From Klebsiella phage RCIP0009, in the sequence record OR532803.1: a stretch of 64,000 nucleotides of DNA. The stretch is one strand, 5' to 3'. This document shows, in pieces, positions 54,559 to 58,944 of the stretch; positions within the stretch are counted from its first letter, which is position 1, and each line of letters begins with the position of its first letter. Below the pieces are notes generated by a model. It saw nothing but the letters and a program-made list of their open reading frames with translations. It was not told the origin of the DNA and searched no databases. A program made the translations under genes and the position numbers.

Positions 54559-55029
54559 TTAACCGTCGTAATCCCCGCCACAATTCACATCGCCTTCAAT
54601 GAACAGTTCGCGGTTATCACGTAATAAATTATACTTTCTTTCGAGTTCAGGCCCGAACGCGTCGGCGTCTTCATACCAGCTATAATTGTATCTTCCGCAT
54701 TCATCATCATATTCTGGTTCATCGCCGCGTTCATTGAAGTGAACAATTTTGATATCGTCCATCCCCAGTTCTTTCAACTTATCCCAGATATACGAAATCT
54801 CAACGCTATGGGAACCGAACGCTTCCAGTGAGATCGTACCGTTGCTATCGACTTGAGGAATACCCCACTTCGAACGAGTATCATCGGTGATCATATCTAT
54901 TAATGACTCAATATTATTCTCACCGTAGATATCAGCAACTTCCTTTTCTTTACCAGGGCGAACAAGTCCGATCCCGATAATAAAGCTACTGCTTGAGCTA
55001 TTGCTCACAAACCCAGAACGAATTTTCAT
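54559..55029 (-). CDS. paralogue A of a small acidic protein family (N-terminus MKIRSGFVSNSSSSSFI)
   Basis: It shares its first 17 aa and a R-Y-x-[YW]-x-W/E-x-ED segment with 58414..58944. Confidence 0.55.
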   Translation of the reverse strand: MKIRSGFVSNSSSSSFIIGIGLVRPGKEKEVADIYGENNIESLIDMITDDTRSKWGIPQVDSNGTISLEAFGSHSVEISYIWDKLKELGMDDIKIVHFNERGDEPEYDDECGRYNYSWYEDADAFGPELERKYNLLRDNRELFIEGDVNCGGDYDG

Positions 55030-55183
55030 CGCATCACCATATTACCAATCATGAATAGAGGGATTAGCGCAAAGACGATACCCCATAGAATGACCTTATC
55101 TTCACGACGGTCACACCCATGATAGATAACACCTCCAGCGAAAATCAATACAACAACTGAAACGAACGCGAATAAAGAAATCA
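55027..55183 (-). CDS. small membrane peptide (52 aa)
   Basis: MISLFAFVSVVVLIFAGGVIYH...ILWGIVFALIPLFMIG. Its stop overlaps the start of paralogue A as ATGA. Below the ORF-track size cutoff. Confidence 0.4.
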
Positions 55184-55831
55184 TTTGCGGGTATCCATTC
55201 TCATAGAAACTTCTTTCAGGATCTTATTCAGATCGTGAAGCGCATCTTTTACGTTACCTTCGTTATAGGTAAGCATATCCTGGTACAGCCCTTTCAAACA
55301 ACGATTGATAACATATGCTTTTTCAGAAGGTAACATTGTTCCAGAACGATTATAATCTCTGAAAATGTCCATCATCGTGCCGTTGTTGCCAGGTAATGAC
55401 GGGTTGAAGTTAACCATACCAGACATCAAACTATCAACATACACAACTGTTGTGTTATCAGAACGATACGCGCCACCAACTTTAAACCAGTTGCTGAACA
55501 CATACGGAGATTCCCGCACTTCGCTCAAATCGGTTCCGATTTCATCGATGTTTACACGAATGTTGTTAAAATACACCGATTCATCAATAGAACCATGACG
55601 CCATAAGATAGCACCATTGTTATTTTTGAATCCGACTACATCAACCTGCCAGCCGTTATCTGTTAACCGGACATCATCAACGACGATGAAATCAGGTAGC
55701 TGTGAATGAAAGCCGATGTTTTCAGGACGGGAATTACGAAACCCATCACGATTGGAGAAATAAAGGATGTCGCCTTGATTCAGTTCGCATATATTCATAA
55801 GATTTTTAAAGTCCAATTCAAGTAATTCCAC
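55181..55831 (-). CDS. hypothetical protein (216 aa)
   Basis: Clean ORF, first gene after the terminator at 55838. Confidence 0.45.
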   Translation of the reverse strand: MELLELDFKNLMNICELNQGDILYFSNRDGFRNSRPENIGFHSQLPDFIVVDDVRLTDNGWQVDVVGFKNNNGAILWRHGSIDESVYFNNIRVNIDEIGTDLSEVRESPYVFSNWFKVGGAYRSDNTTVVYVDSLMSGMVNFNPSLPGNNGTMMDIFRDYNRSGTMLPSEKAYVINRCLKGLYQDMLTYNEGNVKDALHDLNKILKEVSMRMDTRK

Positions 55832-55837
55832 AAGTCA

Positions 55838-55869: not shown

Positions 55870-58086
55870 TTAGAGTTTAACTTCTTTTTCTTCCAGAACG
55901 ATTGTGCAATCAAATTTCACATCTTTCCAGAATTCCGCTGCAACGATATCTGTTGCGGTAACGCTTACGCTGGTTTCTTCGAAATCCAGATCCGCAAACC
56001 ATGCGTGTCCGACGACAATACCGTACATTACACGACTCAGGCGATTATTAAGGGCGCGAACCTCTTTAATAGTTTCCTTTGTCTGTTTATCAAGATACTC
56101 GATCAGGTCATTCTTGTCAAGCGCTTCGATCTCTTTAGATACGGTATCGTAAGCCCACAGAATGATCAGGTCGCCATTGTTGAGTTTCTTCTTACCTTCG
56201 GCGCGTTTTGCAACGGTAGCCGCAACAGCCGGAAGTGATGAAACGCCTTTGATTTTCACGTTCAGTTCTTTCGACATGTAAACATCAGTCGATTCTGTGC
56301 GCTCAACCTTCGGAGAGAAGCCGTAATCACGGATCCCTTGCTCAGACAACCATTCACCAGCCGCCTCACCAAAGCGCTGTTTAAGCCCTTCTGCGTTGCG
56401 TAAACCAATCGCGTTATCACGGAAGAACTTCATTACCTTCTGACGGCCTTTCAGGATTTCCAGACGGACGTTATCAGCAACAAATTCCTTACCAGAAATA
56501 CCGCGAGTCATCGAACGGTTAACCAGAGGCAGAGAGGTAAAGTCAACCAGTACAGACATACGGTCTTCACCAATTTTAGCCAGCGGTTTGATAGTCAGAC
56601 CAGAAGCACGTAAGTTTTTCAGAGTCGGAATATCGGTTTCCAGCGGAAGTACCTTAACGTTCACGATACCATCTTTAACAATGGTAAAGTTACGCACTTG
56701 TTTGGTTTCTACTTTTTCCGGCAATCCAAACTCTTTTTGTTTGCTTTCCGGAATGGTTACATAACCTTGCAGATCCGTATTGATGGAAATGTTCGGACGG
56801 GAACTGTTACCCACCAGGTGTTTCACTGCAACTTTCGTTGTGGTTTGGGTAAATTCCGGTTTCCATACTTCATGCGCTACCAGTTGCGCCGCCAGTGCTT
56901 TACGTTCTTCCGGAGTAGAAGCGTTTGCAATCTGTTCTGACAGTTTATCCAGAGTATCATCATCTTTCTGGACAGTCTGACGGCCTGTACGATTGTACGC
57001 CCAGTGTTCAGAAGACAGGTCGATCACGGTGTCGGTTTCTGCCAACAGTTCGAGAGCGTCAACCAGAGTAAACGCGTTTTCATCAGGAACCATGTTGTAA
57101 TCAACACCATCCATCAGACGTTTAGCCGGATCAACAACCGCTTCGGAGATCATATCTTTAGCGTTGGAATAATCCTGTTTGGTAAAGCAGTTATCGTATG
57201 CTTTAATCAGACGCACATCACCCAGCTTTTTCAGAACTTTCCATGCCAGATCTGGATTCATGGTATGAAGCGCATGATACAGAACCACATACAGAACCTG
57301 TTCACCTTCTGCTGTTGCCGGATCGAAGCCGTCAACGTCATTGATCGCGTTTTCACCCAGCGCCCAAATGTTTTTGATATGTTCCGGAACCAGAACAACA
57401 CCATTTGCAGCATTCAGGACATACACACGGCCTTCATCCAGGTAGATCGCATGGGTTGCATCGCCAACTTTGACTTCAACACGTGCGGAGGTTTGCGCGG
57501 TAATGATTTCATCAAATGCAGGTACATACGCATCAAACCCTTCAACGAATTTGTGTAATGCGTTGGTTGCTTCCGCCATTTTTTCCAGCAGAGGACGGTT
57601 TACATAATAACCATATTCCAGGAAAGCAATGTTGTTAAACGTCAACGGCAGAGTAGAACACGCTTTCAGGATGTCATCAGTACGCCAGCAGTTATCATAA
57701 CCATCAGTCAGGAAGATCAGACTGTTCAGATTGCCATTATCCGCTTGCAGATCGGTAGCGACTTCAACCGCCAGTTGCAGAGGTTCAACGAAGCCAGTAC
57801 ATCCGGTCGGACGCAGATAACGATCGATAGCATCATTGATTTTGCTCAGGTCGGATACAGAGCTAACCTTTTCGCCAACGAATACAGAACCGAACTGACC
57901 ACGGCTGGAGAAATACAGAATAGATACGGTATCATCCTGTTTAACCAGCGTTGCCAGGTTGTTTTTCAGGTGCTGACGAATGCGCGGGAGTTCGTTATAC
58001 ATCGATCCGGATACGTCACAAACAAAAACGTGGTTAGTCGGGGTTGGTTTGGCTACGGCGTTTTTGAATTCAATGTTAGTGATCAT
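55870..58086 (-). CDS. large vWA-domain protein with an intact MIDAS motif (738 aa)
   Basis: The N-terminal VFVCDVSGSM...IFLTDGYDN pattern is a DxSxS...T...D MIDAS motif in an alpha/beta vWA arrangement. The following 500 aa are unassigned. Confidence 0.7.
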   Translation of the reverse strand: MITNIEFKNAVAKPTPTNHVFVCDVSGSMYNELPRIRQHLKNNLATLVKQDDTVSILYFSSRGQFGSVFVGEKVSSVSDLSKINDAIDRYLRPTGCTGFVEPLQLAVEVATDLQADNGNLNSLIFLTDGYDNCWRTDDILKACSTLPLTFNNIAFLEYGYYVNRPLLEKMAEATNALHKFVEGFDAYVPAFDEIITAQTSARVEVKVGDATHAIYLDEGRVYVLNAANGVVLVPEHIKNIWALGENAINDVDGFDPATAEGEQVLYVVLYHALHTMNPDLAWKVLKKLGDVRLIKAYDNCFTKQDYSNAKDMISEAVVDPAKRLMDGVDYNMVPDENAFTLVDALELLAETDTVIDLSSEHWAYNRTGRQTVQKDDDTLDKLSEQIANASTPEERKALAAQLVAHEVWKPEFTQTTTKVAVKHLVGNSSRPNISINTDLQGYVTIPESKQKEFGLPEKVETKQVRNFTIVKDGIVNVKVLPLETDIPTLKNLRASGLTIKPLAKIGEDRMSVLVDFTSLPLVNRSMTRGISGKEFVADNVRLEILKGRQKVMKFFRDNAIGLRNAEGLKQRFGEAAGEWLSEQGIRDYGFSPKVERTESTDVYMSKELNVKIKGVSSLPAVAATVAKRAEGKKKLNNGDLIILWAYDTVSKEIEALDKNDLIEYLDKQTKETIKEVRALNNRLSRVMYGIVVGHAWFADLDFEETSVSVTATDIVAAEFWKDVKFDCTIVLEEKEVKL

Positions 58087-58093
58087 AATTTTC

Positions 58094-58414
58094 TCATTTA
58101 TAGGTAAATTTTATTAAAATTTCGTTTACTTTTTTGCTAATAGTATCTAATGCATCATCGCATCCAAACTTACTACTCAACAATGAAACAAAATCATCCA
58201 TCGTTGTTGTTTGAGACTCGCCAACGTCAAAAGACAGAGCGTAGGCAACAGGATTTTTAATCCTTACGATTTGAATAGTATACTCATTCAGATCAAACCG
58301 TTCAAGATATTTTCGCAAAGAAAATAAATCAATCGGTACTGGTAGAGTTTGACTAAACGTTATTTCTTCCCCCAGTTGATAGGGGGGCATTTTTACACAG
58401 ATTTCGTATTCCAT
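58094..58414 (-). CDS. hypothetical protein (106 aa)
   Basis: Coupled to both neighbours. Confidence 0.4.
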   Translation of the reverse strand: MEYEICVKMPPYQLGEEITFSQTLPVPIDLFSLRKYLERFDLNEYTIQIVRIKNPVAYALSFDVGESQTTTMDDFVSLLSSKFGCDDALDTISKKVNEILIKFTYK

Positions 58415-58944
58415 CAGTGATGACTCTTCATAGTGTGTTCCAGATTACGGAAAATTTGCCCATGTTCAAGCTGGGATTGGAATTCTCCGCATTCATCAGA
58501 GTAAGTAAATTCATAAATGAATACACCGTCCTGATTGCCAAATTTAGAGTTGTACTCTTCATACAACCACATCTTGATCAGAGCGTCTTTCTCTTCTGTT
58601 TCCAGATCATACCAGTCACGCCCATCATAAGCAAGCGCAATTTGAGGATTAGACCGATATCGAGTTTCGGCGCTATCTTCGGTTTCCCATTCATAACGCT
58701 TATCATCATAGTATGATTCGAAGCTATTTCCCATATGACCGCCCAGGTCGCGGTGTACCTGCTGTACAACTTCTTCCGCTGTCGGGCAAGTCATCCAGCT
58801 ATAACCACAGTTAGGAACACAGTCACCCATCATTTCGCGGAGATTGTTGATATCAGTCGGATCCTTCGGGAACCGTACAATAAAGCTACTTGATGAACTA
58901 TTGCTCACAAAACCAGAACGGATTTTCATTATAATTTCTCCCAC
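58414..58944 (-). CDS. paralogue B of the small acidic protein family (MKIRSGFVSNSSSSSFI...)
   Basis: The N-terminal 17-mer is identical to paralogue A and the C-terminal region is diverged. Confidence 0.55.
   Translation of the reverse strand: MGEIIMKIRSGFVSNSSSSSFIVRFPKDPTDINNLREMMGDCVPNCGYSWMTCPTAEEVVQQVHRDLGGHMGNSFESYYDDKRYEWETEDSAETRYRSNPQIALAYDGRDWYDLETEEKDALIKMWLYEEYNSKFGNQDGVFIYEFTYSDECGEFQSQLEHGQIFRNLEHTMKSHH

Follow-up and report, generated by a model that had tools for sequence, protein, structure and literature searches.

We analyzed a window of 64,000 nucleotides from Klebsiella phage RCIP0009 (record OR532803.1) and, within it, the minus-strand block of genes that lies past gene 25. 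In this block, the gene of a large protein with a von Willebrand factor A (vWA) domain carrying a metal-ion-dependent adhesion site (MIDAS) is flanked by the genes of 2 small acidic proteins, here called A and B, which begin with the same short sequence, referred to as the tag. A preliminary description of this DNA had taken the vWA protein and its 2 flanking partners for a self-contained module. We found that the conserved genomic partner of the small tagged genes is a radical SAM enzyme, and we consider it likely that the block is a mosaic, made up of a stand-alone vWA protein and of 2 tagged proteins that are matured by a distant radical SAM enzyme. The region is 99% identical to that of the Slopekvirus Klebsiella phages KP27, KP15, PMBT1, and Miro, and 80% to 90% identical to that of the related RB43/Lw1/Miller group. 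The features that the argument needs first are the following (positions are those of the window unless stated otherwise):

54559..55029, minus strand: paralogue A, 156 amino acids, isoelectric point (pI) 4.33, a member of the "GAGRNG C-terminus" subfamily of the tag-bearing superfamily.
58414..58929, minus strand: paralogue B, 171 amino acids, pI 4.67, a member of the "...LEH..F..L.H..S.H C-terminus" subfamily.
54979..55029, minus strand: tag coding sequence of A (MKIRSGFVSNSSSSSFI).
58879..58929, minus strand: tag coding sequence of B (MKIRSGFVSNSSSSSFI), with 45 of 51 nucleotides the same as in A.
55870..58086, minus strand: vWA/MIDAS protein, 738 amino acids (phrog_2426; KP27_128), with a vWA domain at residues ~1–196, a beta-sandwich at ~200–245, and ~490 unassigned C-terminal residues.
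Outside the window: Slopekvirus radical SAM/SPASM gene, at 90977–92122 of PMBT1 (LT607758.1; L049:7929–9074) and at 153644–154786 of PQ492290.1.

Proteins A and B both start with MKIRSGFVSNSSSSSFI. The preliminary description had pointed out this identical 17-mer, its conservation at the nucleotide level, and the acidic character of the 2 proteins, and all 3 points were confirmed (17/17 residues, 45/51 nucleotides, and the pI values given above). The term paralogues overstated the relation: BLASTP of A against B gave nothing else convincing beyond the N-terminus and a profile-profile comparison (hhalign) of the 2 subfamilies aligned columns 1–34 alone. By these comparisons, A and B appear to share an N-terminal module and not the whole protein. 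A second segment, R-Y-x-[YW]-x-[WE]-x-ED, had been proposed as common to both. As written it fits A alone; a loosened pattern fits both proteins, yet among their relatives it recurs just once in 36 of the A type and once in 11 of the B type, and neither BLASTP nor hhalign aligned this segment between A and B. Judged from these alignments, the resemblance is a matter of chance.

The tag occurs exactly twice in a complete 174-kb Slopekvirus genome and not once in 106 kb of control phage DNA. In 132 tag copies from other phages, the serine positions use both AGY and TCN and the other positions all synonymous codons. Because synonymous codons vary freely across these copies, selection acts on the peptide and not on the DNA, and for this reason we rejected the idea that the tag is a nucleotide-level recombination or regulatory element. 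The concern that the shared 17-mer could be a local duplication artefact was likewise ruled out by the 132 copies, which mark it as a real, selected peptide feature. Among 143 diverse superfamily members, M1, R4, S9, N10, S11, and S12 are invariant, and K2, G6, F7, V8, S13, S15, and F16 are conserved in at least 90%, so that 13 positions are constrained in all. A structure model of A was confident (predicted local distance difference test score, pLDDT, of 90.6) except for residues 1–10 (mean 52); it had no match among solved and viral predicted structures, and searching the Protein Data Bank (PDB) with the sequences of A, B, and the vWA protein returned nothing useful.

From their sequences, A and B are 2 subfamilies of a large phage-specific superfamily whose members share the ~16-residue N-terminal tag (consensus M-K-x-R-x-G-F-V-S-N-S-S-S-x-S-F) and are small and mostly acidic, with unrelated bodies. 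When a profile of A orthologues was searched against 1.84 billion representative proteins (E ≤ 1e-3, clusters at 50% identity), 983 clusters were obtained, and nearly all of the best 150 listed are 140 to 170 amino acids long and match over their full length. These A-type proteins begin with M-K-x-R-x-G-F-V-S-N-S-S-S-S-S-F and end in G-A-G-R-N-G. A motif scan of IMG/VR showed that tagged genes stand in same-strand groups of 3 to 15 neighbors on large contigs (up to 548 kb). The 437 tagged open reading frames (ORFs) collected (~110 loci) encode 348 unique proteins, which fall into 119 BLAST clusters once the tag is removed; the 6 commonest body types include those of B (23 members, 22 loci) and of A (14 members, 13 loci). 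Deprived of its tag, B still matches array members on jumbo-phage contigs, in the ...LEH..F..L.H..S.H cluster (phmmer, 2e-8); untrimmed, it is 43% identical to its relative in locus L057, and D145, E155, H156, and H171 are invariant in the B-subfamily alignments. The superfamily is absent from Pfam and NCBIfam, and Pfam gave a single match, DUF4325, for the 143 representatives. In PHROGs, A-type relatives match just the first residues of B's own family, phrog_7397 (23/36), which has no known function.

The association of tagged genes with the enzyme was then scored in both directions. In the forward test, all ORFs of 30 tagged-gene loci were clustered and the enzyme was scored within 8 kb: it was present at 22 of the 30 loci and was the sole recurrent untagged neighbor family. 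In the reverse test, 80 IMG/VR loci were fetched by enzyme alignment alone, 72 of them from outside Slopekvirus and Pseudotevenvirus, and tagged genes were found within 10 kb in 63 of these 72 (266 genes, median 3). No tagged gene was present in 4 control phage loci (106 kb in total). The 72 enzyme loci contain no second conserved partner; other families occur in at most 9 loci and are ordinary nucleotide-metabolism genes.

Isolated phages carry the same combination. In 50,697 isolate phage records the enzyme was found in 173, all but 2 of which belong to the Slopekvirus/Pseudotevenvirus clade. A and B are carried by the same clade, in 173 and 174 records, respectively. Outside this clade, the jumbo Vibrio phage D479 (258 kb) encodes an enzyme 54% identical and has 5 tagged genes within 12 kb, one of them A-type. 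A homing endonuclease gene adjoins the enzyme gene in some genomes (H226, H231, and Vibrio phage D479). The complete Slopekvirus genome PQ492290.1 has A and B as its only tagged genes and a single gene each for the enzyme and the vWA protein, and there is no enzyme gene within the 64-kb window. The closest outside relatives of the Slopekvirus enzyme, on contigs L042 (60% identical) and L057 (67%), have B-type and A-type genes in the enzyme's own cluster, and hence the Slopekvirus trio of enzyme, A, and B looks like a dispersed remnant of such a cluster. In an uncultured phage contig of T4-like size (169 kb, loci L012 and L065, IMGVR_UViG_3300035208_002255), 3 tagged genes lie near one end and 9 surround the enzyme ~80 kb away, which indicates that the dispersal of tagged genes from the enzyme is not unique to Slopekvirus.

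The enzyme has ~350 amino acids, a CxxxCxxC triad, and matches to Pfam Radical_SAM and to a C-terminal SPASM/twitch domain; the scores are 31.6 bits for Radical_SAM (cut-off 29.5) and, in locus L014, a borderline 22.1 for SPASM (cut-off 21.5). C68, C76, C79 and C260, C285, C303, C355 are its invariant cysteines. The Slopekvirus gene encodes a CX7CX2C spacing rather than the canonical CX3CX2C. Similarities to other proteins are weak and partial (a tungsten-enzyme maturase, MftC, the BtrN twitch domain, and SkfB), and a PDB profile search with the enzyme returned the BtrN twitch domain and the SkfB core alone, with E values of 1e-3 to 1e-6.

SPASM/twitch radical SAM enzymes, such as anSME, PqqE, MftC, sactisynthases, and cyclophane-forming enzymes, typically act on peptides or proteins. 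Partly from this known habit, we take the tag to be the site that the enzyme would recognize and modify. We tentatively propose, with somewhat less than even confidence, a phage-encoded maturation system in which one radical SAM/SPASM-twitch enzyme covalently modifies the universal 16-residue tag on hundreds of otherwise unrelated small effectors, for example by installing formylglycine or an aryl-C-beta cross-link. The flexible N-terminal tag would dock in the enzyme and be modified there after translation; one enzyme would thereby mature a whole set of different effectors, and A and B would be its 2 substrates in this phage. For an enzyme of this class, 3 candidate chemistries can be proposed: oxidation of a serine to formylglycine, as carried out by the twitch/SPASM dehydrogenases anSME and BtrN; a 3-residue cyclophane cross-link in Phe7-x-Ser9; or chemistry at Gly6, with a hydrogen abstracted from its C-alpha. 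A glycyl-radical-type motif (RVxG[FY]), which the R-x-G-F of the tag brings to mind, was rejected because the residue before the glycine is freely variable and the spacing differs. To our knowledge, the activating enzymes of glycyl radical proteins have no SPASM domain.

The tag could alternatively be a docking handle, with the tagged proteins serving as interchangeable adaptors that steer the enzyme to host or phage targets. This would produce an identical genomic association of enzyme and tagged genes, and the combination of highly diverse bodies (119 clusters) with a near-invariant tag suits a common interface joined to variable specificity modules. The present data do not distinguish the docking-handle model from the substrate model. 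We nevertheless regard the docking handle as unlikely, since the conserved Ser, Asn, Gly, and Phe of the tag have the look of a reaction site and we know of no precedent for adaptors of this kind among SPASM/twitch enzymes. Very unlikely, in our view, is that the tag is a sorting signal for capsid packaging or ejection and that the radical SAM neighborhood is incidental synteny. The internal proteins of T4 offer an established parallel, being unrelated small proteins that have only a short N-terminal sequence in common and are encoded at variable loci, and the first 10 residues of A are modeled as flexible. However, Glu is missing from the tag, as is any L/I-x-E site that a gp21-type prohead protease would need, and structural genes do not recur beside tagged-gene clusters. 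Moreover, tagged genes and enzyme are associated whichever of the two the search starts from, across very divergent contigs (enzymes 36% to 67% identical), and the association survives the unlinking of the genes in Slopekvirus.

Several GenBank records offer yet another function for A. PQ657805.1, PP889464.1, and OR637326.1 label it "head-tail adaptor", apparently through phrog_132, to which A has an hmmscan match with an E value of 7.7e-10. We rejected this assignment because phrog_132 is matched by only 1 of 36 family members, the window protein alone. In addition, no adaptor fold was found for A, and its gene is part of the minus-strand accessory block and not of a head/neck module; the baseplate genes are on the other strand. 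T4-like phages use the neck proteins gp13 and gp14. That A is a head-tail adaptor is thus highly improbable, and the label looks like a propagated misannotation.

The superfamily is essentially absent from cellular genomes: a scan of 185,579 species gave 112 motif stretches and 9 confirmed loci, mostly on contigs of metagenome-assembled genomes (MAGs), some of them phage-looking. An 80%-identical copy of A is present on a 178-kb contig of a "Flagellimonas marina" assembly (L040, NZ_JBHSCL010000010.1), which looks like a complete Pseudotevenvirus-like phage genome, either a contaminant or a co-isolate. Contig L042, from a "Bacilli bacterium" MAG, carries 6 tagged genes and a radical SAM gene, and contigs L043 and L045 of a "Nanoarchaeota archaeon" MAG (60 and 249 kb) carry tagged genes as well, with 2 or more on L043. 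All 3 are probably phage contigs binned into MAGs. Our searches of Pfam, NCBIfam, the PHROG function labels, PADLOC, and the searchable literature, in which subscription literature is only partly covered, turned up no account of the tag, of the superfamily, or of the phage enzyme, and literature searches on the KP15/KP27 genes gave none either.

We next considered whether A and B form a module with the vWA protein, as the preliminary description had suggested. At the loci compared outside the Slopekvirus/Pseudotevenvirus clade the genes are not co-located, an outcome that the preliminary description had itself named as refuting its suggestion. No homologue of the 738-residue vWA protein was present within 8 to 10 kb of ~100 tagged-gene or enzyme loci outside the clade (the rest of such genomes, e.g., that of D479, was not searched). 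Conversely, neither tagged genes nor radical SAM genes nor homologues of the other block genes are present at the vWA loci of phages Vi01, PBS1, Slicko01, RHph_N34, and vB_VmeM-32 (6 to 20 kb on each side), and ~330 of the 503 phage records that have the vWA protein are devoid of A, B, and the enzyme. Among the genes of the block, A and B alone have relatives in the tagged-gene/enzyme loci. A cooperation in which the MIDAS metal binds a carboxylate of A, B, or both, with the vWA protein as their adaptor, would draw on the fact that MIDAS sites bind acidic residues and that A and B are acidic. The gene order is also suggestive, with both tagged genes of the genome flanking the vWA gene within 4.4 kb, the junctions between B, a 106-residue ORF, and the vWA gene overlapping or spaced by 7 nucleotides between 2 terminators, and the whole arrangement kept at 80% to 100% identity in ~173 genomes of 2 genera. 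However, a single syntenic clade accounts for all of this co-occurrence, genes are generally packed tightly in T4-like phages, and the vWA loci of the 5 phages named above have no neighbor in common with the block. We therefore consider it distinctly unlikely that the vWA protein works with A and B in this way. That they flank the vWA gene is most readily explained by chance gene order within a variable region.

The vWA protein itself corresponds closely to what had been described. Profile searches place its vWA fold above the Pfam cut-offs (VWA_2, 29.2 bits against 27; VWA, 26.4 against 23.8), VWA_2 is matched by 33 of 36 homologues, and the domain has the alpha/beta vWA fold. The MIDAS signature is complete (DxSxS...T...D, with DVSGSM and LTDGYDN present) and is conserved in the 36 homologues, down to 34% identity: D24, S26, and S28 are retained in at least 90%, and T97 and D128 are invariant. 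Many C-terminal residues are also conserved among these homologues. The C-terminal region, which the preliminary description could not assign, did not match Pfam over its last ~490 residues in any of the 36 homologues, in which the vWA models alone recurred, and a profile of it gave nothing below E = 1 against the PDB. Full-length homologues (~680 to 780 amino acids) are present in 503 phage records, which include Slopekvirus, Pseudotevenvirus, Ackermannviridae, e.g., Vi01 (49% identity), phages of Serratia, Dickeya, Aeromonas, Shewanella, and Vibrio, and also Rhizobium phages and Bacillus phage PBS1 (23% to 26% identity). The gene is thus conserved in many large myoviruses. The gene is among the conserved genes of Vi01-like phages, and only one peptide was retrieved for the VWA domain-containing protein Sajous1 gp185, presumably the product of the same gene (PMC10892097). 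We rejected a MoxR AAA+/vWA pair, since there was no AAA+ match in the ORFs of the block or in the Vi01, PBS1, Slicko01, and RHph_N34 neighborhoods, and a Ku70/80-like protein, since no structural match extended past the vWA domain into the Ku core. The vWA protein is most likely a Mg2+-dependent protein-binding scaffold that would be made early or in mid-infection. In the distant T4-like Vibrio phage vB_VmeM-32 (L130), the vWA homologue (44% identity, at 10001–12178) lies, as it does in the window, a few kb from the baseplate genes gp6 and gp25 (listed at 17648–19996), and the vWA gene may thus be an older resident of the gp6/gp25 region with a conserved position. In Vi01, the vWA homologue is followed directly by a gene (L001, 8256–8573) that is annotated as an acyl carrier protein and has no counterpart in the block.

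Several points weigh against the view of the block as a mosaic whose tagged proteins are matured by a distant enzyme. The Slopekvirus enzyme gene is unlinked from A and B, at a distance of ~19 to 21 kb (~19 kb from B in PQ492290.1), and no partner was found within the fetched flank in 9 of the 72 enzyme loci and 8 of the 30 tagged-gene loci; flanks of 8 to 10 kb miss dispersed partners. The 171 Slopekvirus/Pseudotevenvirus isolate records are one clade and count as approximately one evolutionary event, and the co-occurrence in isolated phages amounts to about 2 independent lineages. The SPASM assignment is borderline: L014 scores 22.1 bits where 21.5 are required, and the Slopekvirus protein scores 24.9 bits where the cut-off is 27. 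The enzyme matches NCBIfam equivalogs only partially (best score 38 bits against a cut-off of 380) and is not a member of the characterized maturase families anSME, MftC, PqqE, FxsB/XyeB, or HxsB/C. The link between enzyme and tag is purely genomic, and genomic inference underlies every functional statement made here. Within the clade, where the genes are tightly packed and both tagged genes always flank the vWA gene, A and B may have a functional tie to the vWA protein that is peculiar to these phages, and the role given to the vWA protein is itself a guess.

All ORFs listed in the preliminary description were present as described, and the overlap of a small membrane ORF with the start of A as ATGA was real on direct reading. 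The 3 hairpins reported there were also read directly, the middle one with a TTTG tail only. The remaining features of the block are:

58094..58414, minus strand: 106-residue ORF (phrog_7677) between B and the vWA gene; its start overlaps the B stop, and it ends 7 nucleotides before the vWA start.
55181..55831, minus strand: 216-residue ORF (phrog_7309), downstream of the vWA gene.
55026..55184, minus strand: 52-residue predicted two-helix membrane peptide (phrog_7160), whose stop overlaps the start of A as ATGA.
53181..53208, no strand assigned: bidirectional terminator hairpin, AGCCCC...GGGGCT followed by TTTTT, which closes the minus-strand block beside gene 25; a terminator in the KP27 annotation.
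55845..55860, minus strand: hairpin GCCCCC-GAAA-GGGGGC with a tail of just TTTG, directly after the vWA stop codon; not listed by the consensus scan.
59836..59855, minus strand: terminator hairpin with the sequence AGCCCC-TTTT-GGGGCT and a TTTT tail, bordering on its upstream side the transcription unit of B and the vWA gene; a terminator in the KP27 annotation.

The start of B is ATG at 58929 in the KP27 annotation, giving 171 amino acids, whereas GTG at 58944 is the mechanical ORF start; ATG is the better choice. With it, the protein begins MKIRSG and the start overlaps the stop codon of the gene upstream. B, the 106-residue ORF, and the vWA gene follow one another closely and are probably transcribed together, and the hairpin at 55845–55860 is a weak terminator or a transcript-stabilizing hairpin. 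Reference records label all minus-strand genes past gene 25 "hypothetical", and searches of Pfam, NCBIfam, and PADLOC with A, B, and their neighbors found nothing. The 106-residue ORF has no relatives beyond the synteny of the clade, and relatives of the 216-residue ORF adjoin neither vWA genes nor tagged-gene loci elsewhere. Just upstream of the block and on the same strand, the window encodes a Dcm-type DNA cytosine-5 methyltransferase (60200..61111, minus strand), and the KP27 annotation places directly downstream of this gene (~60179–60207 in the window) a middle-type promoter that would drive the block. An unidentified DNA modification has been reported in KP15/KP27 phages (PMC5219037).

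If the tag is a radical SAM modification site, the superfamily would be a new class of post-translationally matured phage proteins, and there would be a first clue to the function of hundreds of genes of jumbo and T4-like phages that have no annotation (only 1 of 143 representatives has a Pfam match). Enzyme and tagged proteins would also be a virus-encoded system of one enzyme and many protein substrates that has no described counterpart. The KP15/KP27/RB43 group, which infects Klebsiella, Enterobacter, and E. coli, offers a minimal set of one enzyme and 2 substrates in cultivable phages, among which RB43 has been studied genetically, and the hypothesis is therefore directly testable in this group. 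KP15/KP27-type phages are used in Klebsiella phage-therapy work, in which host-directed effectors are of practical interest. The analysis also corrects the spreading "head-tail adaptor" label on A. The vWA protein is a new, uncharacterized member of a known domain class; present in more than 500 phage records with no function assigned, it deserves study alone, apart from its neighbors.

The closest known systems are the radical SAM/SPASM-twitch maturases (anSME with sulfatases, MftC, PqqE, cyclophane enzymes, and HXS). Like them, the phage system combines a radical SAM core with a C-terminal auxiliary iron-sulfur domain, its enzyme gene stands in a same-strand cluster with genes whose products share a short conserved Ser-containing motif, and there are several motif-bearing substrates per enzyme, which here are putative and deduced from the genes alone. 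In HXS, a bacterial anti-phage system, such enzymes mature a protein with H-x-S repeats (PMC13128918). The phage system differs in being encoded by a virus and not by a cell, and in having an enzyme that belongs to no curated equivalog. Its putative substrates are at least 348 different folded proteins of ~80 to 280 amino acids with an N-terminal tag, whereas the known maturases act on the short leader-core precursors of ribosomally synthesized and post-translationally modified peptides (RiPPs) or on a single enzyme family, and no companion peptidase, transporter, or RiPP recognition element protein recurs near the 72 enzyme loci. A virus-encoded enzyme with very many folded-protein substrates addressed through an N-terminal tag would hence be unusual for this kind of maturase-substrate pair.

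The vWA protein resembles vWA/MIDAS proteins with a beta-sandwich (PDB 4fx5, the inter-alpha-trypsin inhibitor heavy chains, and archaeal ArnB with its Sec23/24-like core) in its complete DxSxS...T...D MIDAS. It differs from 4fx5, the inhibitor heavy chains, and ArnB in sequence (14% to 17% identity) and in its ~490 extra residues, which have no PDB or Pfam relative, and from the compared proteins in being intracellular and phage-encoded. Unlike ArnB, it has no FHA, kinase, or phosphatase partner; nor is a MoxR ATPase encoded nearby. The tag recalls the capsid-targeting sequence of the T4 internal proteins (IPI-III, Alt), also a short conserved N-terminus on unrelated small proteins from variable loci of T4-like phages, but it has another motif, in which the L/I-x-E protease site is missing, it is tied to a radical SAM enzyme and not to the prohead protease, and it occurs mainly in jumbo and large uncultured phages. 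The prochlorosins and ProcM would be a further parallel in that one modifying enzyme serves many clustered substrates with a conserved N-terminal recognition sequence and a diversified remainder; the enzyme class and the chemistry are different, and the variable part in the phage proteins is a folded domain instead of a short core peptide.

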